Assembly (NCBI GenBank): GCA_964016885.1
Contig: OZ024745.1
Location: 69,626,001 to 69,690,000, forward strand
Source of the DNA: Eledone cirrhosa
Taxonomy: Eukaryota
Reading direction: 5' to 3'
DNA: 64,000 bases
Shown: one piece after another, positions 2,256 to 61,071 of the stretch
How positions within the stretch are numbered: position 1 is the first letter of the stretch
How the letters are laid out: each line of letters opens with the position of its first letter
The notes under the pieces: generated by a model
What the model was told of the DNA's origin: nothing
Databases searched by the model: none
What the model saw: the letters and a program-made list of their open reading frames with translations, nothing else
Translations under genes and position numbers: made by a program

Positions 2256-5200
2256 AATTCTTATTATCATTGTTGTTAATTTTTTTCTTCGTTTTCTCAA
2301 TTTCCTCCTCCTCCATTTGTTTTACTTATTGATGGATTTATTTACTAATGGTTTGCACAGTAATTATGATAGTTACACCATCTTCCATTGCCTGTCGAAT
2401 CCCAACACCTACCTCAGACACATAGTACATTCATGAGTATATGAGCAGTGCTTAACAGGGCAATCTTTCGTAGGAGATATATTTGTGATTAAGTTACCCT
2501 CTTAGTTTTAGTCGCTAGCTGCGATGACATCTTGGACCATCTAGATGTTGTTTTGAGATATTGACTAAATTCGTGCAAGTTCAACTTTAATAACATTTCT
2601 CAGGTTTCTCTCTGATGTTCCCCCTACGGACCCCTTTTAATATTGGATGGAAAATATTTGCTCAGGTAACTGTTTATCGTCATCACTTTGTTTCAGTTTA
2701 CTCTGTTCCTTTTATTCTTCTTTCTTATTATCTTCGCATTTTTACCAAACACGTATAGTCGGTCTATCAAATAACCAGACTTATTTTGTCGTCGTATCTG
2801 TTTCACAATCTTAAAGTCAATATACGTCTTTCAATGACGTTTCCTAGTCTCCTGAGATAGTAACATCAATAATCTGGTATTCAAGATTATTTATGTGCAT
2901 TACTAAAGTTTCAGGTCGGTTGTTGTTTTAAGTCAGAGGTATATTTGGATAGTCAAGTTCCAAAGTATCTAACTTGGGTTTGTCTCTGTTATCAAGAACG
3001 CATTATGCAACATGGCGGTGAACTTATCAGACACATAAATATTTAATATTTTCATACATTGATCAGTGAAAGTAAATACAGACCTTGAGATTTTTTCGTT
3101 TATATTTATCTTTAACTAGTAATTTGCCCGCGCTCATTTCGCGGGGGGAAATGTATGCATTATCTCCATACAGTCAGCACTTCAGGCATTTGATATGAAG
3201 GTATAAACGATATTCAAAGCTTGGTATTGGAATACGATCAGCAATGTTTCAGTCACCTGTTTTAGATACTCAGGAGAATAAGTCACAAGACATTTCATAT
3301 ATAATTCGAAAGATTTGTGCTCTCATTGCTCCACTTCATTTAGTTGGACAAATAATTTATACATGAAATTCAGACGTCCGACCTTGTTCTACGCTGTGTC
3401 GCTGAGAATAATGTATAAATATCACGTGTGAGTGGAATTCTCAACCACTTGTACGTCAAATTCAGAAGCAGATGATTCTTTTGGACAAATATCTAGAACA
3501 TTCATCGTCGTTAGAGCAGGAGGTCAAATACTATGTAAAAATGATTCAAACGAAGTCTCAGGCGGTTTCTTATTCTTTCTCCGCCAATAGGCACAGTGTA
3601 ACTGATAATACGATCACATGCGTAGCACCTTCTATTCTGGCTATGGACCATAGCAAATTGAAAATTAAATAGTTCATTAGTTCTGTGAAATGTCAGTGTT
3701 TAAATAGGGCCCCTTTGTAATTTACCAAAATTTAACAGTCTCATGTCATATTTTCATGAATGTTATGTCTTTAAACGTTGATATATGTTTAAGCCCTATA
3801 TAAAATCAATAATATTTAAGCGAAGAGTGTGACAAGCACCAGAACACATTTCATCGCAAACATCTGCTGCAATATAATTATAAATATATAAATATGCATG
3901 TACAGACTTACATTTATATGCGCACACATAATCAGACAAATAAATATTGAGCAAATATTTCTCCAGACAATTTCTCCAGACGTGGTATTCGATTTTTTTC
4001 TTTCTAGCTGTGTTGCTCAAGAGTGTATGTGTATGTGTGCGTGCGTATGTGTATTATTTGTGTGTGTGGGGGGGGGGGTACGTGTGTGTATGTAGATGTT
4101 TGTGTTTCTCTATATATTGTTAATTTGTTTTAGTTTGAGCTAGGTTAATCGGTATAAAGGCACTCACTGACACTCAAACCCACAGACGTCGTGTGTTATA
4201 TTTTCGTTTCTAATGCAACAACAATTGTCTATTCCATTGGGGAGTGTTATCATCATGCGACTTCATATTAGGCACTCTTGATTCCCATCATTCCGTTCAA
4301 CACCCATATAATTTCCACCACCCCAGGCCACATAATAACCTACCTGCCCATAATATCGGTCATACGAAACTGTCCTCATGTTCAGGTCTTCAAAGTAGTG
4401 TGTCTACGACAGTTTCAGTCGAACATCTCGGAGAGTCTGTGAAGGCCACTGGAAATCCTTCTTCCTTGTAAAATATATAAAAATGTCTCTATGAAAGCGC
4501 GTGTGAAGAACCAATCATGTTAGAACCAATCATGACTGAATGGTTGAGAAGTTCGCTTGGCAAACTTTATATCGCAGCTGCAATTTCACTCGATGTGATC
4601 CTGGACTAGTGTAATTTACAATGGATTCACGTTACCCCAAGCCTTCTAAGTTAAACTGGATTGACAAATGGGCTGTATCTATTATTCAAGATCGAGCTTT
4701 GCCGCACAAATTCACAGAGAATCTCCCAGAGAATTGCGTTAAGTGTGCAGGTGTTTTTTTAAATGCTCAAATATTAATTCTTTGATTCCATACGTGTATC
4801 TAAGATCGTATGTCATTCTTTAAAACTCTTTTCATTTGTGTTGAAATTCTAATAACATCTTAACTGTAAGGGCTTTACTTCCGCAATAAATTAGTAATGA
4901 TCCACATCACATGAAAGATGATAAACCAATGGTCACTCTATCGTGTTTCATATGCCCTATTTACAACATAATGACGGGTCTTCTGCCGCCGACGACATTA
5001 AACATTAAGGTTCCCGAGCAACTGAATATCCAACTCTTAGATTACCCTGTAAGTGCTTCAGTATTCCACAGACATTTGTACACTGCTGTCTATTACATCA
5101 GTTGAAATGTGATTATGGTGATGGGTATATGTGGAGCGTAATGTTTTATGGTATAATATGTTCCGCTATTCGCTACCACCCATGTAGCAAATAACCAGCC

Positions 5201-8200: not shown

Positions 8201-10031
8201 GTTCCTGAAATAGTTAGGCCCTAAATCGTGTTCAAAATGGAGTCATTCTATATTGCATAGCATTGTCCTCTTCAACAATGGCTTACAAGGATTACTTTGT
8301 ACTACGGTAAATAAAATAGGGCTGTATGTGCACACATATATACACTAAATTAATGTATAATGCACATACATTTCTTCTCGGTGTGCAATAAAAACAGCAA
8401 GCTCGGTAGAAATACAGTGAGATTAAATGTGTTTATTTTACATAAAAGTATTGTATATCTTTATTCATTTATTCTGAATCAGCCGTTGTTCATGTTATTG
8501 TTAATTAAATGTAATATATGGAACAAGTATTAAAGACCAATTAATATTGAATAAATGTGCAGGCTCTAGAATAACAACGTATTAATACATAAATATGTAT
8601 TTATAATATATCGCCTCTGTACATGGCACAATTTAACATACAATTGAGTTAGATACAACCGTAAGAACTAATAACATGCAAACTATAACTTACTGTTCGA
8701 TAATATTACCACATTTGGTGTCCTTATGAAGCCATTTGTTAAAAGTTTCTCTGTGGACTAATAAATGTGTACATAATTTATGAGAATGATCCAAATATAT
8801 TCGAAACTCAATTATTTTTTTAGGTCCACCGAGAAATATAAGACACATTCTTACATATGCCAGTGTGTTTTCTAACATAATTCCACTGATTCTTCTAAAT
8901 ATTACATTGTTACTGTACAGGTATGTATGTAGAATGTATAGCACACTAAACATACACCACATTAAATATGAGTGAAACTTCAACTACTACGTAACGCTTT
9001 AAATTTTCGTCAATGAATGAACATATAGAACTAAAAATTATTCGAACAATAAGTTGATGTTACACGTATGAAGGTTCTGCGTCTATCAAGATCGACGGCA
9101 AGAAATCGAACAATCTGGTAGACAGCGTATTACATATATTGACAATTTCAGAAATTACTGACCTGGAATTTATCCAGACATTGAAAATTGCAATGTTAGA
9201 GACAGAATTGAGAACATGGAACTGGTGCCTTGAAAGGGTAACGTCCTAACGAACTAACAAAATAACCAACCAAAGAAATAACAAGCGAACCGATTCCCCC
9301 ACTCACTCTATATATATTATTAAAATGCAAGAGAAGGATGAGAAAATAACTACCACCATCCTGGCTACGGAACGCAATACAGGCACTCTAAGAATCTGAT
9401 TAGATGACTAGAGCTTCCAATTAATAACGGAATGGAAAGAAACGAGACAGCGTGGGTTATCTAGTATGATCCAGACACAGTTGCACGGGCACAATTCAAA
9501 AATACATGCTTATTTATATATTTACACTCACATTCACATATCATATATGCACATCTAGGGATAGATTTACGTACACACACATATGTCATTACATTTACTC
9601 ACATACATACGCACTTACATGTTTACAAATATATTTCCACATATTAACACACATACAGATACATTTACCTACACACACACACACACATCATATACATGCT
9701 TACACATACATACAATCAGTCGATGTATACATTTGAGAATACTATGTATTCTCAGCAGTCCCAGTGTGTAGTAGTGACGAGAATACACAATCTTAATAAG
9801 GAGCACACACTCTGACACAAATGTCGATTGTCTTCTATCAGCTACCGCTAGGAAAAACGATGACGTTGGTCATCTAACACGTGGTGATTATGAGTCTATT
9901 TGCTTGCAAACAAACCGACTATTAATAATATTATGATATATTATAATAATATTATTATTCACTCACGAATATATATATATATATATATATACGATATTAA
10001 CAAATGGAAACTATATTTATAAAACCATATT

Positions 10032-10097
10032 TATTTCATTATACATATTTCAAGGACACCAAGTTAAATTATGGTGTGCTTTCATCAGACAAAATAT
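10032..10097 (-). ncRNA. Type I minimal hammerhead ribozyme candidate in pLTR
   Basis: TATTTTGT-CTGATGA-AAGCACACCA..TGGTGTCCTT-GAAA-TATGTA-TA-ATGAAATA; stems I and II pair; near-palindromic stem III; the inverted copy near 14275 has a mutated core (TTAATGA). Confidence 0.75.
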
Positions 10098-11621
10098 AAT
10101 ATAGATCAGTTTTATAAATAAATATTGACATACCCTTAAAAAATGCAACCATTACTGTTGGAAGCTCCCGGATAGTGGAGTTGTTTACTTATATTATTAT
10201 TAGTATTGGATATTTTTATTTTTAAAATAAGCCGTTGGGTTACAGAGAAAGAAAAAGAAGGAGAGAGAGAAAAAGAAGGAGAGAGAGAGAGAAAAGAGAG
10301 AGAGAGAGACCAAAACAACAGAGAGAGAAAGATATATAGAGAGAGAGCAGACAGAGAGAAGAGTAGAGAACGAAAACTCTAAGTCATATCTTGTTGAGTT
10401 AACTTAACAATTTAGATGAAATGAATAAATAAAATTAGAAATGTTAATAATCATGAATGGAATATACATATATAATATGAGAAATTAATCATTGTTTAAA
10501 TATGATTAGATGTTTAGTTAGTCATTTAAAAATTGAGATCAATATATTAAAAATTGGGATCTATACATTAAGAAATCCATATATTGCTAGGGAACTACAT
10601 ATCATATAACACGTAGACACACGCAAAAATACATATAAATATATATACACACTTATAAAATACATAACATATCTAACTACGTATATAATATATACACACA
10701 AAGCATAAAGGATTCTTTAATTTCATTTAAGATATAGGAATCTTAAAAATGTTATAATTGTTAAGATATTAAAGGAAATTTTATGTTATACACACTTTAT
10801 GTTATTAAACAAAATTTTTTATATAAGTTTTATAAGATTACCTGTTATGTATTTATGGCTGTTAATTATATGTTTATCTGTCAGGAATCATTGGGAAAAT
10901 CATTATACATAAGTGCAATCAAATTGTATGGATATACACGCACATGCATATACATAATTCTCACATATACATATATATACATGTGTGTGTACCCTCAGCC
11001 AATAGGTAGATACGCATACATATACATACAGACAGACATACATTCATAAAAACGCATAGAACATATGTACATGTATGTCAATACACACATATACATATAT
11101 ACACACATATAGAGAGAAGTATATATCAATACAGTACATAGTGTAATTGAGTACATAAAATACAAAAGGATTATATTACAATTTGGAAATATAATTATAA
11201 GCAATATAACTTTAAAAGCAATACAATTTTAAAATATTATAGAATATTTTAAGTTATAATTTCAAAATAATAGTATGTTTAATAGATTTAGTACATAAAT
11301 TTATCTTACGTATACTTAACTCAAAATTTTGAAAGGATAAACATTCGAAAATAGGAGAATCTATCAGAACAATAAGAAAACAATAAAAAAATAAAAAAAT
11401 AAGAAATAGGAAATATTTTCTCCTTTCAAGAGCTCTCAATATATTTCTCTAGAATAGTTTATTATATTTATATTTATTTATATTTAGCAAGAAAACTTAT
11501 TTTTACTTGAGTGTCTAATCAGTCAAAAAAGATGAAGGAATCTAATGATTTATCGACAGGATTCATATATTAATAAAATTAATTAATTAATTATATACTA
11601 CATTTTAAATTTATATTTATA

Positions 11622-12110
11622 TTAAAACGTTGAGTTTAATCTATGTCTGCAGCAACTGAATAAATTATTCCTTAAGTTCAGGGAATTTTTGGTCTTTAAT
11701 ATAAAGAATATTTCCTCTATACAAAGATCGCAATTTTCTGAAGAGGAGTTAAAAGGAGTAGCTTTTGAAATAATATTCCAAATCAACGAATATTCAAGGT
11801 TCTTTAGTTTTAGGTCCCATAATAGGTTAGATAGAGAAGTTGAAGATTTTTTGTTTGGATCTGTAAAATAATTTTTATGATTATTGAAGCGGGATTTAAA
11901 CTCTGTGGAAGTAGATCCCACATACTTAAATGAATTTAAATTACTTTTTACATTACAAGTATATACTACATTATATACTACTAAGCAATTGTTATTTAAC
12001 GGACAGTTAGATTTATTTCTACAGTTACATTTATCAGATTGAATATTGCATGGGTTATTATTGGTTAGGTTTTAAATTTCTATTATTAATTCTATTAATA
12101 TTTTGCGCTA
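11622..12110 (-). pseudogene. Naiad-type PLE GIY-YIG endonuclease remnant
   Basis: CNCRNKSNCPLNNNC..VVYTCNV..KYVGSTSTEFKSRFNNH..CDLCIEE..SCCRH. Confidence 0.88.
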
Positions 12111-12111
12111 A

Positions 12112-12215
12112 CGAGACATCTGGACTTCATCTCACAGTTCACGAACGACATTCAACATATTCCAGGTTCTTTGAATACAGCGGCCGATGCGCTGTCTCAC
12201 CTACCCATCATCTTC
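12112..12215 (+). mobile_element. Ty3/Gypsy pol fragment (end of RNase H region)
   Basis: Translates RHLDFISQFTNDIQHIPGSLNTAADALSHLP, matching the Gypsy I.HIPG..N.AADALSR motif. Confidence 0.75.
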
Positions 12216-13034
12216 TTGCCAGCACTAGTAAACTACCATAATAGCTTCGTTCCTCAGCTACTGGTACAACACTTACCATTAACATTTAATGCAAGAACAG
12301 CAACTTCGCCCATGTCAGGCTTTATCTGTTTTCTGGTAGACCTTTGGTGGTCACGTATAAACTACAAAACAGCTAGTCATTTGACAGCGGCTCAACACGG
12401 CCCGTCGCGCCTCATTTTTTTTTTCTTGCATGCATCTTTCTGCTCAATTATGTTTTCACTGATGTGCTCTTTCAGCATTTGTTCTTGCTGATTCAATAAT
12501 CTGTTGGTCCTCGGCTTCATCGTTAACGATTTTCGGCTAAAAATCTGCTCGGAGGTGATGTAGTGACCTACATTCCGCGGGCTCACATACATTCTCTGTG
12601 CGTGATTTGGCTCAGCTCAGCCAATCAGCGCCAGTAGAAAGGATGTATCCCTACGCGTTCTGAGGGAGAAATAGCCCGCAAAGATTTGAGGACGCTATGA
12701 CTCGCAGCTTCGACCGTGCTAAGGTAAACAACCATTTTTCTTGCGCCGTGAAATCACTAGCCAATATGTAACACAACCATTTAACCACGGCCTGGCAACG
12801 CTTCTCTCAGCCAGTAGCCCGTGTCTTTCTGGAATCTTAATTAGTTTGTTTAATTTCTCTTGGCATGCCAGCTCAACCTTTGTTAATAAATAATGTAAAA
12901 ACAAGCTAAAGTCGTGGTCGATATTCCTATCATATCTTTCTACCAAACCTGGTTCCTTGTGGCAACCTTACCAACTTCTAAATACTTCTCCGCTAAATTG
13001 GTGACTTATATTCAACAAAGAGAAACATTCTTTT

Positions 13035-13740
13035 CCTTTATGTCTATTAAAAATTGAGTAATATCTATGTGTTCTAGGGAAGCATTTGTCAAGAGCTTTA
13101 AAAAATAGTTTAGCAATAGGGGTTTTAATATTTAATGAGAAAGGAGGAGCGAACCATAATATGTTCCTAGTTCTATTTCTTTTTCGGCTTTCGGAATTAA
13201 TGTAAGGCTTTCTATTATAGTTGTTAAAATTGTTACCACAGTTAAAATTGTTACGATTATGGTTAGTTGTTATATTAATATTATTATCGATGTATTTAAT
13301 TTTATTTCTATACCCAGCTCTACCTAACGCTTCGTTGTAATAATGTGCTTTTTCATCAAATATATTCTTATTAGCTGAAATTCTCGAAATCCGTTCTTGT
13401 ACAGAGTTCACTATATTATTTTTAACGGATCTGGGGTGATTAGAGTTAAAATTGACGTAATTTAAGTTCTCATTTAGTTTGTGAAATGGATAAGGAAGAC
13501 ATGTATTAAGATTTAGTGTTACATCTACAAAATTGACTATTTTATGGTTATTCTCTATTTCTACTTTTAGATTAAGGTAATTAAAAAATTGTATAATTTG
13601 TTTTCTTTTTCTATTTAGTTCATAGTTATTATTTTCTATAAGTAAAAGCATGTCGTCACGATATAAACCTCCCGTTATCTCAGGTATTTTTCTATGTAGA
13701 GAATTAATTATAAATAGGCCCACAAGATCCGTTACCTGAA
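13035..13740 (-). pseudogene. Naiad-type PLE reverse transcriptase C-terminal half/thumb
   Basis: ORF 12968-13723: GGLYRDDML, NFVDVTLNL, YVNFNSNHP, ILWFAPPFSLNIKT, IFNRH. Confidence 0.9.
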
Positions 13741-14034
13741 TGATTACCGTTATCTAAACAATGATTAATTTCTCATATTATATATGTATATTCCATTTCT
13801 AATTATATTTATTCATTTCAACTCAATTGTTAAGTAACTCAACAGGATATGACTTAGAGTTTTCGTTCTCTCCCCTTCTCTCTGTCTACTCTCTCTCTAT
13901 ATATCTTTCTCTCTCTGTTGTTTTGGTATCTCTCTATCTCTTTTCTCTCTATCTTTTTCTCTCTCTCCTTCTTTTTCTTTCTCTGTAACCCAACGGCTTA
14001 TTTTAAAAATAAAAATATCCAATACTAATAATAA

Positions 14035-14161
14035 CTGTTTCTACTTTAGGCACAAGGCCAGCAATTATCCAGTGCATTACTGGTATTTTATTTTATCGAC
14101 CCCGTAAGGATGAAAGGCAAAGTCAACCTCGGCGGGATTTGAACTCAGATCGTAAAGGGAC
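14035..14161 (-). mobile_element. 5'-truncated SINE inserted in the inverted pLTR copy
   Basis: Same SINE family as 1594; flanked by AATAATAA target duplication; absent from the 10190 copy of the pLTR. Confidence 0.9.
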
Positions 14162-14457
14162 AATAATAATATAAGTAAACAACTCCACTATCCGGGAGCT
14201 TCCAACAGTAATGGTTGCATTTTTTAAGGGTATGTCAATATTTATTTATAAAACTGATCTATATTATATTTTGTTTAATGAAAGCACACCATAATTTAAC
14301 TTGGTGTCCTTGAAATATGTATAATGAAATAAATATGGTTTTATAAATATAGTTTCCATTTGTTAATATCGTATGTTTACTCCAAATACTTGTTGAGTGC
14401 TTTATATCAGTTATAAAAATATTTGCTTGTTGTATCCCAACAATTTAATAGAACTTT

Positions 14458-14495: not shown

Positions 14496-14842
14496 TTAAC
14501 AACTTCATTTATACCATAAACGTGGTTTTTTCTTTGCGTGTAATTGTTCTCACCACTCCACATAATGACGTATTATCTTCGTTTTTTTCCGTTCATTGCC
14601 AGGGAACGTCTCCACGAACCACCTAAATAGAATATTAGTCTATGACTTCATTTATACCATAAACGTTCATTGCCAGGGAACGTCTCTACGGACCAAAGTA
14701 TCGTCTTCCTGTTTACCTTCGGTTACAACGTTTTTCGAAATATTTACTTCTGCGTTCACAGTTGGATTTCTTTAATTTCAGAAGATCCCGTTAAGGGTGA
14801 AAGTAGCGATTCTTTGCTTAAACTTTAATCTCTTATTTTAAT
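14492..14842 (+). mobile_element. Solo pLTR of second Naiad family (family N2) in (TA)n
   Basis: Homologous to 26930-27345, 27836-28380, 29300-29655, 32395-32720, 42158-42420, 43156-43356. Confidence 0.85.
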
Positions 14843-15404
14843 ATATATATATATATATATTATATATACATATATATATATGTGTGTGTGATACCTATCT
14901 AATATACATCAATCTATCTAACTATTAGCAATCGTCTTAACAAAGTGAGAGTTAGAGTAGAGACATATATGTTTATCTATAATAAAAATATACATGTTTC
15001 ACTGTGACTACTTTGAACTGGGATCATATCACAGCTACCCAAGTAATGTTTGAGAATACAAAATATTGTTACTTCAAAATTATTATCTGTCATCAGTGCG
15101 TAACAGATTATATATATATACTTTGCAAATAATATATTTTGAGATCTGGTCATTTGCTTATGGAGTTTATTTGACGGGTTAGTATTAGCAGAAACACTAT
15201 CACAGCGTGATTTGCGGTAGAATAGAGGCGTATATGAAAGCATATACAATATTTTATGTACGATAAGCAAATATAAATCTCGAAGTCACTATTTGTATCT
15301 CTCTATATATATCTATCTACCCTTTTCTGTCTCTTTCTCACACACACTCCCTCTCTCTCTCTCTATCTCTCTCTCTATATATATCTCTCTCTCTCTCTCT
15401 CGCT

Positions 15405-19615: not shown

Positions 19616-19833
19616 GTATAAAAATCAATACAATATAATTACCTCATTACCAGAGGTTTCCCGAATGAGGCGAATACGAAAGAAACGTCTTCATTCGTTC
19701 GTCAGACGAGGCAATATAAAACATGGGTATATTGCCTCGTCTGACGAACGAATGAAGATGTTTCTTTCGTATTCACCTCATTCGGGAAACCTCTGGTAAT
19801 GAGGTAATTATATTGTATTGATTTTTATACATT
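19613..19833. repeat. 106-bp-arm palindrome (9-nt spacer) in (TA)n carrying two divergent hammerheads
   Basis: 19613-19718 is the reverse complement of 19728-19833 with 2 mismatches. Confidence 0.95.
19731..19808 (+). ncRNA. Type I hammerhead ribozyme candidate (mirror copy at 19638-19715, minus strand)
   Basis: ATTGCCTCGT-CTGACGA-A-CGAATGA..TCATTCG-G-GAAA-CC-TCT-GG-TA-ATGAGGTAAT; 10-bp stem I, 3-bp stem III, GUA cleavage triplet. Confidence 0.8.
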
Positions 19834-23530: not shown

Positions 23531-23580
<50 letters not shown>

Positions 23581-23780
23581 ATACTTGGGGAGGGTCATAT
23601 TTGTGTAATATTGCCAGAATTAATAACAGAACACACTCACTGTTTGGTTGGTTTTCGCCTCTCGCTTCTGTGTCTTTTATATCGGTAACCTAACTTACTC
23701 GGTCCTCAATGTTGCCATTGACTGACCGACGGTCAAAAATAATACAGATACAATATAGACACAAACACATATATATAGTC

Positions 23781-24152
23781 TGGTGATGTGGGGTTGCATA
23801 GCCTTGATGTAGTCGGCATGCTATCTATTGACATCCTACCAGACTTATCCGTGGGTAGACATACTACCTCACCATCCCTTGTGCGCTGCTTGAGGCTAAC
23901 TAAGCCTTCTACAGGTTTCCTCCCAAGTTGTTGGGCCTCTGGTCTGCTCTGTCTCTTAGTATACCTGTCTACTATTTGTCTAATCTTATTTCTAGCTATG
24001 GTGAATTGTGCCTCTGTCTCGCCATCTATTTGTTGTGGTATGCAAACTCTTTTATTAAAGGGTAACCTCGTAGGATAGATATTACCCATCTTATATGTTT
24101 TGTCAGCTGGGTTGAAAAATAGTTTCTCTAAGGGGTTGTCATTATATCTATC
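23781..24152 (-). pseudogene. Inverted N-terminal segment of the PLE ORF
   Basis: Open frame ending DGEVVCLPTDKSGRMSIDSMP (PLE DKG-type motif), overlapping SIDSMP at the start of the + strand ORF. Confidence 0.85.
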
Positions 24153-26256
24153 GTCAATAGATAGCATGCCGAACTGCATCAAGGCTATGCAACCCCACAT
24201 CACCAACACGAGCGAAATTGCACGACAAACACACGATGGGAGAGAGAAAATCCTCAACGCTTACATGATGATGTGGACTGACATCCTAAAGCCAAGCAGA
24301 CGCACTGCCAACAACTTCCAGGAGTCTAACAATGGCATACCACCCTTGTATGGGCTCCGCAAAGACCACAAGACAGTCGACGACCCGACAACAGGACCAC
24401 CAACAAGACCCGTATGCGGAGCTAATATAGCTAGTAACTACAGGAACTCCTACTTCCTCTCAATGGTTATACGCCCCATAATCAAGATGTCCCCAGATGT
24501 ATGTGACAGTACAGAGGACCTCCTCAGCAGAATCACTGAGTGCAACAAAAACAGGAACCTATCCAACTGCATAATAGGCAGCATGGATGTGGTGTCACTG
24601 TACCCATCCATTAACATTGATTTTGCTGTGAAAAGATGTGTGGAGATGATCATTGAGAGTGAGGTGGTGTTCTGCGACGTCGACACAGACGAACTGGGCC
24701 TCCTACTTAGACTTACCTACGACACTGACTACCTAGACAGCCATGACCTTAGACGTTTCTGCCCTAGTAGACCTATAATAGGTAGACCCTCCACCATAAC
24801 CTCAATGGCACAAAAGACTCCCATGGGAAGGTGGATTGGGTGGACCAAAGCTATACGGACCCCCCAAAACAATGATCAGGTAAGAAAAATGGTCGCACAT
24901 GCAATAGGGGCTAGTATCAAAACTACCCTAAAGGGCCACATATTTAAGTTCAATGAGAAGATCTACACCCAAAATGAGGGAGCAGCCATCGGCGTCAGCA
25001 TAGCTGGTGATGTTGCCAACCTTTTCATGGTATGGTGGGAAAGGAGACTTAAAGATATTCTTAATGAGAGCTCCATAGACATCATCATGTACTCTCGTTA
25101 TGTAGACGATATCAATATAGTTATAAGAACACCCCCACTAGAGAGTACTAACAAGTTTGATTTAGAACGTAGCACGATGGAAAGCATCCAGCAGATAGCT
25201 AATTCCATACACCAGAGTATAACTGTAACTATCGACTTCCCTTCCAAACACCCTAACAATAGACTACCTGTATTAGACACAGAACTCTGGATTAACACTA
25301 TAGACGAGAGAGCCCAAATTCTCCTCTCACACTATGCTAAACCCATGGCCTCCAAATACCTGATACTCAAAAACTCAGCAATGTCCAGTAGTGCTAAGTT
25401 TAATATTCTGATCGCAGATTTGGTACGAGTGATGAAGAATGTGTCCCGCATGTGCGACCCAACAGAAATGGAAATACACATCCAACACTTCATTAACCGC
25501 ATGCAGTTCTCTGGCTACAACCAAAGAGACAGAGTCAGAGTATACGAAGGAGCCATGGAGAAGTATAAGACCCTCATAGAACTGGACATGAAAGGAATTT
25601 GCCCATTATACAGGAGCAAATCATGGAATAGCTTAGATAGGGCTAGACATAAGATAGGAAAAGCCACCTCATGGTACGACAACCAGAGATACCAGAGTGT
25701 CATGTTTGTGGACGCTACCACTGGAGGGAAATTAACTAACCAGTGTAGAAAGGCCCTGAGAAAGACCCACTTCAAAATTAAGGTGGTAGAAAAGCCAGAA
25801 ACCACCATAAAATCCCTGATCAGCAAAACCTACCCTTTTAAGAAAACCCACTGTACCAATAGGAAATGTATCATATGTAAGGTAAACCCCCTGATAAACT
25901 GTAAAACTAGAAACGTAGTTTATAGCATAAGATGTACAGAGGGTACTTGCAGAAACATGACAACAACATACATAGGTGAGACAGCTCGTAGCATAGGTGA
26001 AAGGATAGACCAACACTGGGGGGAACTAAAAGGACGAAAATACGGGTCAGTACTATACGAACATGCTAGACAACAACATGACGGTAACATAGAAAACATA
26101 GAAATTAGAATAATATCTAAACATAGAAATGACCCAGCTGATAGGCAAATCAGAGAGGCCAGTGAAATAGAAATTAGAAGACCAAGACTAAACAGAAAGA
26201 ATGAATGGAATAACAACAACACCCAAACAAACAACACTGACCTAAGAGAAGTATAA
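24100..26256 (+). CDS. Penelope-like reverse transcriptase + C-terminal GIY-YIG endonuclease (5'-truncated; genuine coding sequence starts about 24153; possibly Nematis clade)
   Basis: LYGLRKDHK, RPVC, SMDVVSLYPSI, QNEGAAIG, RYVDD, LPVLD, Cys-rich linker, NVVYSIRC..YIGETARSIGERIDQH..EH; no stops in 718 codons. Confidence 0.95.
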   Translation: MSAGLKNSFSKGLSLYLSSIDSMPNCIKAMQPHITNTSEIARQTHDGREKILNAYMMMWTDILKPSRRTANNFQESNNGIPPLYGLRKDHKTVDDPTTGPPTRPVCGANIASNYRNSYFLSMVIRPIIKMSPDVCDSTEDLLSRITECNKNRNLSNCIIGSMDVVSLYPSINIDFAVKRCVEMIIESEVVFCDVDTDELGLLLRLTYDTDYLDSHDLRRFCPSRPIIGRPSTITSMAQKTPMGRWIGWTKAIRTPQNNDQVRKMVAHAIGASIKTTLKGHIFKFNEKIYTQNEGAAIGVSIAGDVANLFMVWWERRLKDILNESSIDIIMYSRYVDDINIVIRTPPLESTNKFDLERSTMESIQQIANSIHQSITVTIDFPSKHPNNRLPVLDTELWINTIDERAQILLSHYAKPMASKYLILKNSAMSSSAKFNILIADLVRVMKNVSRMCDPTEMEIHIQHFINRMQFSGYNQRDRVRVYEGAMEKYKTLIELDMKGICPLYRSKSWNSLDRARHKIGKATSWYDNQRYQSVMFVDATTGGKLTNQCRKALRKTHFKIKVVEKPETTIKSLISKTYPFKKTHCTNRKCIICKVNPLINCKTRNVVYSIRCTEGTCRNMTTTYIGETARSIGERIDQHWGELKGRKYGSVLYEHARQQHDGNIENIEIRIISKHRNDPADRQIREASEIEIRRPRLNRKNEWNNNNTQTNNTDLREV

Positions 26257-26502
26257 ATAAGTAAATAAAATAAAATAAATAAATAAATAAATAAATAAAT
26301 AAATACATACACAAGCACAATAACAACAAGCACATAAACACACACTAGTCACCCATCACACAGCAAACAAAACACTATACACACACGCAAACGCATGCGC
26401 AAAAAAGACAAAATGAAATAAACAAACAAGCAAATAAATATATAAATATATAGACAGACTGTATAAAAATGGCGTAGACATACAATACAACAGGAGGAAA
26501 AG

Positions 26503-26556
26503 ATAGCACCACTGACGATGTTGCAGATGTGCAACGAAAGATTTATGATAAACTAT
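26503..26556 (+). ncRNA. Minimal type I hammerhead candidate in 3' pLTR
   Basis: ATAGCACCA-CTGACGA-T-GTTGCA-GATG-TGCAAC-GAAA-GATT-TA-TGATAAACTAT; perfect 6-bp stem II, imperfect stem I. Confidence 0.75.
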
Positions 26557-26796
26557 ATATATGTGTTTGTGTCTATATTGAATCTGTATTATTTTTGACC
26601 GTCGGTCAGTCAATGGCAACATTGAGGACCGAGTAAGTTAGATTACCGATATAAAAGACACAGAAGCGAGAAGCGAAAACCAACCAAACAGTGAGTGTAT
26701 TCTGTTATTAATTCTGGCAATATTACACAAATATGACCCTCCTCAAGTATAACAATATTTGTTTCGACACACGATTTCATATAAAAAACCTCGCAA

Positions 26797-26929: not shown

Positions 26930-27345
26930 CAGGGAATGTCTCCACGAACCACCTAAATAGAATATTAGTCTACGACTTCACTTATACGATAAACGTGGTT
27001 TTGTCTTTGTGTGCAATTGTTACCACCGCTCCAAATAATGAAGTATTATCTTCGTTCTTTTTCCGTTCTTTGCCAGGGAACATCTCCACGAACCAACGTA
27101 TCGTCTTCCAGTCTTTCTTCGGTTGCAACATTTTTCGAAATATTTACTTCTGCGTTCACACGTTCATAAATAGATTTTTTTTTTAGTTTCAGAAGATCCC
27201 GTTAAGGGTGAAAGCAGCGATTCTTTGCTTAAACCTTAATCTGTTATTTTAATAAATATTTGCTCTAGGCTTCTTAGATATTTGATATATATTTATCCTT
27301 ATCCAGCCCTCTTTGGATTTTAGTCTTCAAATTTATTATTATTAC
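26930..27345 (+). mobile_element. Solo pLTR, family N2
   Basis: Homology to other N2 copies; ends gtcttcaaatttattattattac-(TA)n. Confidence 0.85.
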
Positions 27346-27370
27346 TATATATGTGTGTGTGTGTCTGTGT

Positions 27371-27788: not shown

Positions 27789-27835
<47 letters not shown>

Positions 27836-27838
<3 letters not shown>

Positions 27839-29648
27839 GTAATAATAATAAGTTTGAAGACTAAAATCCAAAGAAGGCTCGATAAGGATAAATGCATATC
27901 AAATATATAAGAACCGTAGAGCAAATTTTTATTAAAATAACAGATTAAAGTTTAAGCAAATAATCGCTGCTTTCACCCTTAACGGGATCTTCTGAAACTA
28001 AAAAAGTCACTTTGTGAACGCAGAAGTAAATATTTCAAAAAACATTGCAACCGAAGGAAGACAGGAAGACGATACTTTGGTTCGTGGAAACGTTCCCTGG
28101 CAAAGAACGGAAAAAAACTAGGATAATACGTCATTATTTGGATCGGTGAAAACAATTACACGCAAAGACAAAACCACGTTTATGGTATAAATGAAGTCGG
28201 GGGCTAATATTCTATTAGGTGGTTCATAGATACGTTCTCTGGCAATGAACGGGAAAAACGAAGATAATACGTCATTATGTTGAGCGGGAAGAACAATTAC
28301 ACGAAAAGACAAAACCACATAAATGGTATAACTGAAGTCGTAGACTTCAATTCTATTTAGGAAACCGAATGAGCCTCGGCTTCAGAGATAATAATAAAGT
28401 AAATAAAATACAGAGGTAATTGAAATTAAATATATACATACACGCATCCATATACGTACATACACAAGCATACGCGAAAACACTCGCCATGTGTATGCAA
28501 ATACAAGCACGTACACAAAAAATCACGCAGAATGTTTGCAGAGGCACGTCAACCAAAATACAAAGTACATATATACACACACCCTACATACGTACGAACG
28601 CGCATACTCACACAGACGCAAAACTCACATACACACATAACCAAATGCACATGTACCAGTATATATAATATATACGCCAATAACAAATACAAGCAAATAT
28701 ACGTACCAGAAAGTATACGTACCTTCACAAAACATACAGGTAATATATACTTACCTATACAAATAAGTAATGGCATAAACATAACATATACTTAGCTACC
28801 ACATCAAGACGTAAAATATCCGCGTATAGATCGTACTGTCCGTTAGGGTATAATGTGGGGTTGTAATACAGGACAGTTTTGTGCAATTTATGTTTACAAG
28901 CCGAAATTACTTGAGATTTTTTGTTTAAGATGTGGTCTTTGGCGTAGATTACTTCCAGATCATCAGTGGCGCAGAGGTTGCAAGGTCTTTTATTTCCGTT
29001 ATACGATCTAGCCTTAGCTAGGATCTCCCAGTGTAACTTATATTGGGCGTGGTTGTCTTTTAGACTCCAGATATAAGCTGAAAGTGACGTCATATTCCTT
29101 CTTAAAGGGTTAAGAAAAGAATGGGTATGCATGTAAAGACGCTGCTTGAATCTATTGGCGGTTAACCCTATATAGGCTGTGTCTGTTTCAACCTTACATT
29201 TGTAGACAATGTTACTAGAGAGGCATTTCCCGGATAGGGGGCAGTCAACTCGATTCCTACAATAACAGTTAGTACTAGCTACAGGGTTGCACGTGTTCCT
29301 AATTTTAATTACCTCTGTATTTTATTTACTTTATTCTTAACTCTGAAGCCGAGGATCATTCTGTTTCCTGAATAGAATTTTAGTCTACGACTTCATTTAT
29401 ACCATAAACGTGGTTTTGTCTTTGCGTGTAATTGTTTTCACCGCTCCAAATAATGACGTATTATATTCGTTTTTTTTCGTTCTTTGCCAGGGAACGTTTA
29501 CACGAACCCAAGTATCGTCTTCCTGTCTTCCTTCGGTTGCAATGTTTTTTGAAATATTTACTTCTGCGTTCACAGATTGACTTTTTAGTTTCAGAAGATC
29601 CCATTAAGGATGAAAGCAGCGATTAGTTGCTTAAACTTTAATCTGTTA

Positions 29649-29655
<7 letters not shown>
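27836..29655 (-). mobile_element. Truncated Naiad-type PLE (family N2): EN remnant 28830-29298, 3' pLTR, inverted 5' pLTR 29300-29655
   Basis: TSLSAYIWSLK..WEILAKARSY..CNLC..SACKH; inverted pLTR; (TA)n on both sides. Confidence 0.9.
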
Positions 29656-29701
<46 letters not shown>

Positions 29702-32388: not shown

Positions 32389-32394
32389 ATATAT

Positions 32395-32720
32395 AGTAAT
32401 AATAATAATTTTGAAGACTAAAATCCAAAGAAGGCTTCAGAAGGATAAATATGTATCAGATATATAAGAACCGTAGAGTAAATATTTATTGAAATAACAG
32501 ATTAAAGTTTAAGCAAAGAATCGCTGCTTTCATCCTGAACGGAATCTTCTGAAACTAAAAAAGTCAATCTGTGAACGCAGAAGTAGATATTTCAAAAAAC
32601 GTTGCAACCGAAGGAAGACGATACTTTGGTTCGTGGAAACGTTCCCTGGCAAAGAACGAAAGAAAACGAAGATAATACGTCATTATTCTTTGCCTAAACT
32701 TTAATCTGCTATTTTAATAA
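32395..32720 (-). mobile_element. N2 pLTR with short terminal inverted copy; further fragment at 32895-32955
   Basis: Homology to N2; 32688-32722 is inverted relative to 32485-32520. Confidence 0.8.
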
Positions 32721-32844
<124 letters not shown>

Positions 32845-32987
32845 CTGTATGTATATACATAAATATATGTATATATTTATATATATATATATTTATTAAA
32901 ATAACAGATTAAAGTTTAAGCAAAGAATCGGTGCTTTCACCCTTAACGGGATCTTATATATATATATAGAGAGAGAGAGCGAGTGAG

Positions 32988-42039: not shown

Positions 42040-42496
42040 AATTTATATATATATATATTATATATATATATATATTATATATATATATATATATTATATA
42101 TATATATATATTATATATATATATAATATATATTTTATATATATATATATATATATAGTAATAATAATAAATTTGAAGACTAAAATCCAAAGGGGGCTCG
42201 ATAAGGATAAGTATATATCAAATATATAACAACCGTAGAGCAAATATTTATTAAAATAACAGAGTAAAGTTTAAGCAAAGAGTTGCTGCTTTCACCCTTA
42301 ACGGGATCTCCTGAAACTAACAAAGTCAATCTGTAAACGCAGAAGTGGATATTTCAAAAAACGTTGCAACCGGAGGAAGAAAGGAAGACGATACTTTGGT
42401 TTGTGGAAACGTTCCTTATGCAAATAAGTAATGGTATAAACAAAACATATACTTAGCTACCACATCAAGACGTAAAATATCCACGTATAGATCGTA

Positions 42497-43110
42497 CTAT
42501 CCGTTAGGGTATAACGTGGGGCTGTAATACAGGGAATTTTTGTGCAATTTATGTTTACAAGCCGAAATTGCCTGAGATTTTTTGCTTAAGATGTGGTCTG
42601 TGGCATATAGTATTTCCAGGGCCTCAGCGGCGCAGAGGTCACATGGTCTTTTATTTCCGTTATACGATCTAGCCTTAGCTAGGATCTCCCAGTGTAACTT
42701 ATATTGGGTGTGTTGTTCTTTTAGACTCCAGATATAAGCTGAAAGTGACGTCATATTCCTTCTTAGAGGGTGACGAAAAGAATGGGTATGCATGTAAAGA
42801 CGCTGCTTGAATCTATTGGCGGTTAACCCTATGTAGGCCCTACGGGACGTGGGTGGTTCAACCTTACATTTGTAGACAATGTGACTAGAGAGGCATTTTC
42901 CGGATAGGGGGCAATCAACCCGATTCCTACAATTACAGTTAGTACTAACTACAGGGTTGCACGTGTTCCTACGGCTAGGTAGTTTAGCTAAGTTTGAAGT
43001 TGTGATGTTATGTGCAAGGTTAGGACTCGTAGAGTAAGACATTTTAATAGTATTTCTATTAAAAATGTTACTATATTTAAGTGTAAGGGGAAAATGCTTC
43101 GTAATAAGGG
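42497..43110 (-). pseudogene. Naiad-type GIY-YIG endonuclease, open but 5'-truncated
   Basis: CNCRNRVDCPLSGKC, IVYKCKV..AYIGLTANRFKQRLYMH, CDLCAAE, SACKH. Confidence 0.92.
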
Positions 43111-43268
43111 AAATATCTTAGCTAATGGTGTGACCACCTCCATATTATATGGTGGGTTTTGTTTATACCATTACTTATTTGCATAGGGAACGTTTCCACG
43201 AACCAAAGTATCGTCTTCCTGTCTTCCTCCGGTTGCAACGTTTTTTTAAATATCTACTTCTGCGTTTA

Positions 43269-43342
43269 CAGATTGACTTTGTTAGTTTCAGAAGATCCCG
43301 TTAAGGGTGAAAGCAGCGATTCTTTGCTTAAACTTTAATCTG
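43269..43342 (+). ncRNA. Full type I hammerhead fold with CAGAAGA (U4A) core; representative of family N2
   Basis: CAGATTGA-ctttgtt-AGTTT-CAGAAGA-T-CCC-GTTAA-GGG-T-GAAA-GCAG-cgattct-TTGC-TT-AAACT-TTAATCTG. Confidence 0.7.
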
Positions 43343-44399
43343 TTATTTTAATAAATATATATATATATAATTCCAATATATGGGAGGCTCCTTATTTACA
43401 TAAAACACTCAAAATAAGCATCGGTCGATTCGTTGAGGACAACATAATAGTATGATAATTATTTTTTTTATTATAAAATCCTATGAAGGTTCATTTGAAG
43501 TCGAGTAACTATGATAAATGATAAGTAGTTTGCTTTGTTTTCTTTAAGTAGAATAAATTAAACTGCCAATCATAATTTCCAGCCGGAAGCCATGATGTGA
43601 ATTATCTCCATGGAGTCGATATATGGTATAAGTATTCAACAAATCGATTCTGTTACATATAACTGTTATGGTTTCTTACTTTATCATTCTCACCTGGCGA
43701 CACTTAAGTATTTACTCAACAGTTTCAAGTCATGGCTATGTTCGGCACACATCGCTGCTTCCTGATGATGGCCTAAAGTGTATTGCAACAATGCTGAAAG
43801 AAAATGATATAAAAAAGAAGTATATACTTCGGACAAGTCAATGTTATGTCTCATCGAGTTCAACTTGTTTCGGGGTCAATAATAGTTTTATCCCTCCAAC
43901 GTCAATATTAAATAGACTGGGTTTCTGGATATCTCAACTATAATTGTTCCTGTTTTTCAGTTAACGAAACAGTCTTCTCATTAGTTAAATTAACGAGTAG
44001 GTGTCATTTAATAACCCCTATAAACGCAACATAATAAATAATGCCCGATAAGACTGGGTCTTTGAATTATGGTACAATATATGGTACAAACCTTTTCCCT
44101 CAATTTGTCTAACAAGGATTCGTTCAATCGACGTCTAACGTAAAGTCCTCTATTTCAAAATAGCAACCAGTGGAATCGAATCCGGCACCTCACATAAACC
44201 ATCCGGTCATGCTGCGTCTAACAAAATAGTTTCGGATGAAGTTGCCTCGCGCAACTTTTTATAGTGCTGTATATGCAGGGTGGGAGATAATATATGATAT
44301 ATAAATTCCGTGATATGATAATTTGGAATATAAGTTAAATACAGAATTGGAACATTTCACTTCTCAGGTAACAACAAAACATAAATTTAAATAAGCAAA

Positions 44400-44715
44400 T
44401 TATAAATGTAAACATGTAAGTATGTTTTTGAAATGTTGCGCGAGTTTGAAAATTAGAAATTAGAAATTATAAGCTTTCACCGACTAAAGACATTTCTAGC
44501 CTGATAGTGGGGTTTATAACCCTCGGAGAAATGGAAAAAGATGAGTGTTGCCGTACATGGGAGTCGAACCCACATCTTTGGTTGAACCAAAGATTCGACT
44601 CCCATGTACGGCAACACTCATCTTTTTCCATTTCTCCGAGGGTTATAAACCCCACTATCAGGCTAGAAATGTTTTTAGTCTAAAATACGGTGAAAGCTTA
44701 TAATTTCTAATTTAT
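44400..44715. mobile_element. Fold-back copy of the tRNA-like-bearing family
   Basis: Arms about 44455-44583 and 44585-44712 centred on ctttggtt-g-aaccaaag. Confidence 0.85.
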
Positions 44716-60622: not shown

Positions 60623-61071
60623 AAGAAAAAGGGATGAAATCGAAAATGCAACTGAAGTCTTATTTTTTTTTTAAATATATATATTTATTTGGTTCCTTTA
60701 CCGGTTTCGCAGTTCTTCTGCTTTTCAAAAGGTGAGTGGAGATGGAGGGTCTGCTGGCGCGAAATTTATTATAATTATTGACAAACCAATCAAATTACTT
60801 CTCGAAAAACCTGGTTTTCGAGCCAGTTTTTCCATATAAAACAAGTAACATTTAGAGACCAACCAGATGTGAGAAAAACCACAGACACTCCATCTCAACT
60901 CACCTTTTGAAAAGCAGAAGAACTTCGAAACCGGTAAAGGAACCAAATAAATATATATATTTTTAAAAAAAATAAGACTCCAGTTGCATTTTCGATTTCA
61001 TCCCTTTTTCTTTATACTTCCACTCGTGTAGGACACCTCGGTTATTTTTCATTTTGTAAAAAAAACCTCAC

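Follow-up and report, generated by a model that had tools for sequence, protein, structure and literature searches.

The window analysed here is a stretch of 64,000 nucleotides of Eledone cirrhosa DNA (contig OZ024745.1, positions 69,626,001 to 69,690,000), numbered from its first letter. Its insertion at 42159-43358 is an inverted pair, composed of a main copy on the minus strand, which runs from 43158 to 42159, and a terminal copy on the plus strand at 43158-43358, and each of the two carries a hammerhead-type motif (Table 1). Besides the plus-strand motif, on which this study centres, the window holds seven more copies, six of them complete and one, at 32955 on the minus strand, partial. 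The six complete ones coincide with the recurrences of the core announced by the original prediction. The last of them (C3 at 42313, minus strand) reads CAGGAGA, however, and represents decay of A6 to G, not a variant of N7.

The organisation of the unit can be read from the full-length copy L061, where the first of two hammerheads, spaced 3,259 nt apart, precedes the ATG by 197 nt. The unit measures 3.26 kb and comprises a 709-aa ORF, with an RT and a C-terminal endonuclease, and an intron of 750 nt in the 3' repeat. The hammerhead is located 102 nt past the 3' splice site and, in most intact copies, 199 nt before the next ATG.

Table 1. Features of the element and of its hammerhead motif, in window coordinates
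Feature	Position	Strand	Remarks
Type I hammerhead-derived motif, whole	43269..43342	+	Pairing seen directly in the sequence
7-nt 5' stem I bulge	43277..43283	+	Sole part of the motif where subfamily majorities differ (2 of 7 sites)
Core box 1, CAGAAGA	43289..43295	+	C3 is 43289; A4, in place of U4, is 43290
Stem II with U.U flank, U-CCC-GUUAA-GGG-U	43296..43308	+	
Stem III and CUU triplet	43312..43329	+	Predicted cut 3' of 43329 (U17)
Inverted 5'-truncated terminal copy ending in (TA)n	43158..43358	+	Spliced, exon junction 43186/43187
Main copy, truncated within the ORF	42159..43158	-	ORF end, spliced 3' UTR (junction near 42416/42415), hammerhead, tail
C-terminal Hydra-clade ORF remnant	42497..43158	-	CxCX5C linker and GIY-YIG-type endonuclease with CxxC and CxH
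Second hammerhead copy	42260..42333	-	Decayed (A6G, loop III changes), A4 kept
Tail past the hammerhead	42159..42243	-	Equals the 5' UTR of the next unit
Older-subfamily copy	14651..14850	+	C3 at 14779, A4
Further copy	26930..27352	+	C3 at 27190, A4
Further copy	27832..28241	-	C3 at 27994, A4
Further copy	29367..29663	+	C3 at 29592, A4, stem II decayed
Further copy	32389..32687	-	C3 at 32551, A4

Clade assignment and recent mobility

By its domain order and protein motifs, the element is to be classed as a Hydra-clade Penelope-like element (PLE), the defining motifs of this clade being those given by Craig et al. 2021 (PMC8557442). A single ORF encodes the RT followed by a C-terminal endonuclease, and the 709-aa protein contains RWR, HSDKT, FDINNYY, MGASDSAE, YRDDG and CxCX5C, as well as CxxC and CxH in the endonuclease. 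The DKT motif is exact, RWR replaces the N-terminal RWK of the clade, the cysteine and histidine motifs read CNCRNRADC, CDLC and CKH, and no CCHH was seen on inspection by eye. The TA flanks of the insertions reflect the (TA)n preference of the clade, and the spliced unit, at about 2.5 kb, falls within the size of Hydra-clade elements, which are generally shorter than 3 kb (PMC8557442). The canonical hammerhead of the clade is missing, its place being taken by one with a CAGAAGA core. Protein identity to the best metagenome relatives that share these motifs amounts to 40-43 %. In a Pfam search the endonuclease fragments went unrecognised.

The element had originally been attributed to the Naiads, in which the GIY-YIG endonuclease is N-terminal to the RT and DKG is changed to DKA (PMC8557442). 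This attribution has to be given up, since the RT motifs come first here, the endonuclease comes last and the protein reads HSDKTGN, thus DKT and not DKA. The family does resemble Naiad PLEs in its high copy number, its (TA)n targets and its inverted 5'-truncated partner copies, and in both cases a CUGANGA descriptor detects no canonical hammerhead. Because the element belongs to the Hydra clade, where hammerheads are the rule, the motif is no case of a hammerhead hiding in a clade that is supposed to have none, and the surprise is smaller than first thought.

Recent mobility of the family, already suspected, is borne out by the ORFs. Among 30 loci chosen by protein score, 11 have intact ORFs of 709-729 aa, all of them with CAGA. 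Seven ORFs of equal length are only 1.1-2.7 % apart, and their shared variants give a dN/dS of 0.14 (7 non-synonymous and 14 synonymous changes); low divergence together with this ratio indicates that the family was recently mobile under selection.

The intron (L061:5834-6583) is of the spliceosomal type, GTAAGT...CCAG with a pyrimidine tract before the CCAG, and is exactly absent from both copies of the insertion at 42159-43358. This exact loss fixes the sense strand and shows that the template copied was processed RNA whose cleavage site was uncut or had been re-ligated. The motif, which had been described as sense to the element and downstream of its ORF, is accordingly sense to its own copy, whereas the ORF remnant of the insertion lies on the minus strand. 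Among the first 100 listed of 1,429 genome-wide junction matches, 9 are spliced (about 9 %). The loci that were examined, a set biased towards spliced copies, include 39 spliced, 65 unspliced and 6 other cases, and the cleavage site is intact in 38 of the 39 spliced ones. Insertions of both kinds keep the site uncut, with 3' ends about 29, 65 and 114 nt past it in (TA)n. None of 56 full-length 5' ends falls within 5 nt of the predicted cut and 25 of the 56 run through the intact motif; this test is uninformative, as a control family with a canonical core also yields 0 in 30 copies. A second sequence resembling a 3' splice site occurs in an upstream sub-repeat (L061:6440), and none of 110 copies is spliced to it.

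A conserved motif, GCTCC-N(5-8)-GTTGAGCACTC, is found in the 5' UTR 20-60 nt before the ATG (in L061 at about 3586-3606). It occurs in 45 of the 77 loci among L081-L157 (0.9 of 77 in shuffles), often twice about 60 nt apart, and spans Hydra-clade elements that are only about 40 % alike in protein. Ten of the 56 full-length 5' ends are situated on this motif, 25-35 nt before the ATG. The motif is a candidate for a promoter or an RT-binding hairpin, and a search of the literature and of the accessible part of the Craig 2021 supplement gave no description of it.

Several other repeats accompany the family in the window. A second Hydra-type family at 9984-14379, with about 38 % protein identity and ORF remnants at 11619-13729 on the minus strand, has a canonical CUGAUGA hammerhead at 10088(-) and at least 10,465 genome matches. 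A different Penelope-like element occupies 23573-26758, with a 725-aa frame (24079-26256) for an RT plus C-terminal GIY-YIG, a terminal copy in inverted orientation, and a core motif of the canonical type, CUGACGA, at 26512; this ORF is not that of the family under study. Hammerhead motifs of further repeat families are present at 19705(-), 19741(+), 41415(-), 60728(-) and 52032(+), the one at 60728 being of the U3-A8 type, and the genome thus appears to hold many hammerhead-bearing families. Finally, 44519-44641 forms a long near-perfect hairpin of a repeated element. It is likely a small inverted-repeat transposon, and its score as a microRNA precursor in Rfam is below the threshold.

The hammerhead motif and its fourth core position

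The fold predicted for 43269-43342 is visible in the pairing of the sequence itself and has the type I layout, with three stems around the core and an open-ended stem I. Outer stem I (43269-76/43335-42) comprises 8 bp including one G.U, and inner stem I pairs 43284-88 with 43330-34. The CCC/GGG pairs of stem II lie at 43297-99/43305-07 with U.U on their flanks, the GAA of the core at 43309-11, and stem III (43312-16/43324-28) has 5 bp and a 7-nt loop. The U.U pair closing stem II, to which attention had been drawn, is present and ordinary in the Hydra clade, where it is found in 13 of 26 rows of File S2 of Craig et al. and in 24 of 53 hits in the relatives described below. All positions of the hammerhead core are there (C3, G5, A6, N7, G8, A9, G12, A13, A14, A15.1-U16.1 and H17) except U4, which is replaced by A. 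The motif is taken to be a type I hammerhead by descent, with a U4A core fixed in the family.

Thermodynamic folding does not separate the motif from its canonical relatives. The hammerhead fold has an energy of -12.4 kcal/mol against -15.6 for the minimum-energy fold, with a folding z of -0.21, and the pairing probability of inner stem I is 0.07; in the relatives' 53 hits its median is 0.25, with 34 % at or below 0.07. A hammerhead family is absent among the 150 listed of 152 Rfam matches (E<=5) in the 64-kb window. Neither the poor folding energy nor the Rfam result is decisive, given that a third of the relatives' hammerhead hits are equally poor at inner stem I. A competing 5-bp UUUCA/UGAAA helix, which A4 completes, has a probability of 0.33 with A4 versus 0.01 in four natural U4 copies, which represent one sequence type, and this probability drops to 0.07 in a longer context.

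In the 3.0-Gb genome, position 4 within the same 33-nt context is A in 16,794 exact matches, U in 63 and C or G in 109; being exact matches, these counts are lower bounds, and a control with the reversed pattern gave 0 matches. Of some 17,000 matched copies, about 99 % carry A4; both subfamilies have it, as does each of the 11 intact copies that were examined. The core is thus fixed as predicted, and U4 occurs at the level of mutation noise. Thirty of the 63 U4 copies were inspected and have mixed subfamily backgrounds, several being situated at inversion junctions. Several U4 copies (L033, L034, L035, L037, L046 and L060) coincide precisely with fold-back inversion junctions next to the core, so that template switching at such junctions may be able to create the U. 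An amplified U4 master lineage was rejected, as the 63 U4 copies are fewer than the 109 with C or G and their backgrounds are mixed. In the DNA contigs of runs X1 and X4, U at position 4 does not reach 1 %; the contigs of runs X5 and X6 (7 and 3) are near-identical and of low depth, and were therefore left out as independent support. The family shares the genome with many canonical-core families, and the other hammerhead families in own-genome loci have CUGA or UUGA, save for one CCGA hit and one weak UAGA hit.

For comparison, 77 metagenome relative loci were obtained from the best 80 of 522 confirmed stretches, an earlier scan having returned none. With a descriptor left open at position 4, 53 distinct hits were recovered in 53 of these 77 loci, namely 48 with CUGA, 3 with UUGA, 1 with CCGA and 1 weak hit with UAGA. 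The latter lies off the repeat, away from the canonical hammerhead of its own locus, and other A4-like hits in the relative loci are low-scoring and within ORFs. This leaves 52 credible hammerheads in the 77 loci, 51 with U4, one with C4 and none with A4. Many of the 24 loci without a hit end too early and four have a U4 core under a looser pattern; several offer room enough and still show no hammerhead. The triplet is GUH in 52 of the 53 hits as opposed to CUU here, and in File S2 of Craig et al. 2021 (PMC8557442) all 26 Hydra rows start with CTGA and have GUH. The position of the motif is shared: of the 18 relatives with an upstream copy, 17 have C3 at a distance of 172-223 nt ahead of the ORF match, compared with 199 nt here. 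With U4 in the relatives and no A4 at the hammerhead position, A4 is likely the derived state. A search for a closer sister family with U4 found none: the nearest protein relative, P0002, is 57 % identical, and an own-genome search with P0002 retrieved the same family only.

Two hammerheads from this survey deserve mention. At L084:2677 a metagenome contig carries a natural U4C hammerhead, CCGAAGA, with a 6-bp stem I and a 4-bp stem II, and lying upstream of a Hydra-clade ORF that has a canonical hammerhead of its own on the 3' side. The look-alike at L077:2661 was considered as a sister and rejected; it belongs to short inverted repeats. Together with L323-L342 it represents a short inverted-repeat element with a minimal canonical hammerhead, a U-flanked 3-bp stem II and a CUU triplet, and 40 scored candidates match this element at 94-100 %.

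Conservation of the terminal block

In 118 copies picked without the core pattern, common variants affect 12 of the 84 sites upstream, 1 of the 67 in the stems, core and loops, and 2 of the 7 in the bulge (p 0.007). The same contrast separates the old subfamily (58 copies, 3.9 % from their majority) from the young one (175 copies, 1.8 %). Counting sites not used to define the subfamilies, the two differ at 23 of 167 upstream positions (about 14 %), as against 0 of 67 in the stems, core and loops (Fisher p 0.0004); both of the bulge differences are group-defining. Since A4 is present in both subfamilies, it predates their split. The tail beyond the hammerhead differs at only 2 of 102 sites and is thus as conserved as the motif, so that the constraint need not be catalytic. 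Its target may be a promoter or a block that binds protein; alternatively, the terminal conservation may stem from an exchange of 3' ends between the subfamilies.

The covariation check on the stems that had been proposed was run and is silent within the family, as the stems do not vary between the subfamilies. At the first pair of stem II, 14 of 42 double changes are Watson-Crick versus 13.5 expected, the 49 double changes at pair 15.2-16.2 are scattered with no dominant compensated type, and no compensatory subfamilies were found among the family copies. In a clade alignment of 16 sequences not fitted to the structure, all three stem II pairs change on both sides and 97.8 % of the cells are paired, 8 of the rows being non-family sequences that had been chosen as hammerhead hits.

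Expected activity and significance

U4 is near-invariant in the hammerhead core, and among cleavage triplets CUU ranks as a poor one. When every single and double mutant of a type III hammerhead was assayed, all mutants of the CUGA region other than a C-G swap had low activity, and none was rescued (PMC9901934). U4 contacts the A6-N7 phosphate; natural U4C has a lower activity in vitro, yet one that is sufficient in vivo and allows viroid infectivity, and U10.1-U11.1 also occurs naturally (PMC3088659). In vitro, the PLE hammerheads of metazoans generally cleave slowly (PMC4209133; review PMC6765202). The reading we favour, with a probability of about one half, is that the terminal-repeat hammerhead of this Hydra-clade PLE has undergone a family-wide change of U4 to A, that it would cleave far more slowly than its canonical relatives and that its sequence is kept within a constrained terminal element. 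The low rate is predicted by extrapolation from other hammerhead scaffolds. A4 would lose the U4 contact of the CUGA U-turn and might let the competing UUUCA/UGAAA helix hide the GAAA. Most transcripts of tandem copies would remain uncut and so be available at full length for translation and copying; slow cleavage and re-ligation would be occasional at most. One may speculate that the relatives are braked by a short, dimer-dependent stem III and the family, with its longer monomer-type stem III, by the core change, an idea weakened by the longer stems III, or the CUU triplet, of canonical-core families in the same genome. The original prediction had offered either a new active core or a deliberately attenuated ribozyme. 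Attenuation fits the published mutagenesis (PMC9901934) better, although "deliberately" cannot be shown, and the likeliest reading of the motif is a ribozyme that has weakened, not one with new chemistry.

A tentative and clearly less probable alternative is that catalysis was lost long ago, that the fold has ceased to matter and that the last ~175 nt are kept as DNA or RNA signals for the promoter, RT binding or 3'-end formation, or homogenised by template switching between the subfamilies. Such a relic would account for a tail conserved as strongly as the motif and for loops II and III, expected to be freer under catalysis, being unchanged as well. It has more difficulty with the other core positions and the three stems, which are intact after ~14 % flank divergence, when about 9 changes would be expected in 67 nt, and with the confinement of the motif-internal differences to the unpaired bulge. 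Nor has any change occurred in the 5' strand of outer stem I, which precedes these differences, though it measures only 8 nt. The lack of covariation within the family, while a canonical family of the same genome has paired stem II changes between copies, is in keeping with lost catalysis, as are the failure of the hammerhead to be the minimum-energy fold and the fact that Naiads thrive without hammerheads (PMC8557442).

Weaker again is the case for a new active core, in which A4 would be tolerated as such or compensated for by the 13-bp stem I, by stem III with its 5 bp, by a contact between the bulge and loop II, by a dimer or by the element's protein, and cleavage in vivo would be normal. 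The pairwise mutagenesis, which revealed no second-site rescue of CUGA changes (PMC9901934), argues against it, and so do the absence of A4 at the hammerhead position in the 77 relative loci and the CUU triplet where relatives have GUH, even if all other conserved nucleotides are retained in both subfamilies and the stems are long enough for a monomer. Natural active core variants do exist (U4C, A6C and U3-A8), and the C4 hammerhead at L084:2677 has good stems. An efficient A4 hammerhead rescued by peripheral contacts or by its own protein would amount to a new active-site geometry missed by CUGANGA descriptors, and we consider this improbable. A chance look-alike unrelated to hammerheads, with which the Rfam result and the z of -0.21 would agree, can practically be dismissed, as position and layout are shared with hammerheads across the clade, the stem II pairs covary in the 16-sequence alignment, albeit with hammerhead-picked non-family rows, and the 16,794 exact genome matches contrast with 0 in the reversed control.

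Known systems resemble the family in part. The Hydra-clade hammerheads of Craig et al. 2021 (PMC8557442) are likewise of type I near the 3' end, with a short stem II often flanked by U.U, and belong to elements with (TA)n targets and the same protein motifs; they differ in having CUGA, GUH and a short, mostly palindromic stem III in 26 of 26 rows, in place of CAGA, CUU and a stem III of 5 bp capped by a 7-nt loop. The motif of the family is absent from the supplement of that paper as far as accessible, and differs from Hydra-1_oBim. The minimal or atypical PLE hammerheads described by Cervera and de la Pena 2014 (PMC4209133), including that of D. virilis Penelope, also reside in a terminal repeat near a spliceosomal intron, in families missed by standard descriptors, and have low activity in vitro, which was measured there and is predicted here. 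The core change reported there is, however, the compensated U3-A8, a U4 change not being found in the available text, and the Penelope intron ends at helix I, whereas here 82 nt separate the intron end from outer stem I. The variants of Perreault et al. 2011 (PMC3088659), viroid U4C, A6C and U10.1-U11.1, are comparable as single uncompensated core changes with reduced but possibly sufficient activity (a result in their case, a prediction in ours). They are rare or single cases, whereas here an autonomous element has a purine fixed at position 4 in 16,794 copies or more. The main text of that paper, figures aside, does not mention U4A. No U4A hammerhead was found in the literature on core variants and PLE hammerheads, a scope that stops short of Lünse et al. 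2017 (PMC5785218), the likeliest source, and of figures and bioRxiv supplements. A U4A cleavage rate was not found either, the accessible parts of PMC9901934, PMC11014351, PMC7229834, PMC3376415 and bioRxiv 10.64898/2026.07.22.740005 included.

The role of the hammerhead in endonuclease-bearing Penelope-like elements is stated to be unclear (PMC8557442), and the family constitutes a natural test of whether such elements need self-cleavage. Should its hammerhead prove dead or very slow, efficient self-cleavage would be dispensable for a highly successful autonomous family in whose clade hammerheads are said to be universal. If it is active, the consensus of the hammerhead core and the search descriptors would need widening, and if an efficient A4 core proved true, similar variants could hide in elements now scored as hammerhead-free.
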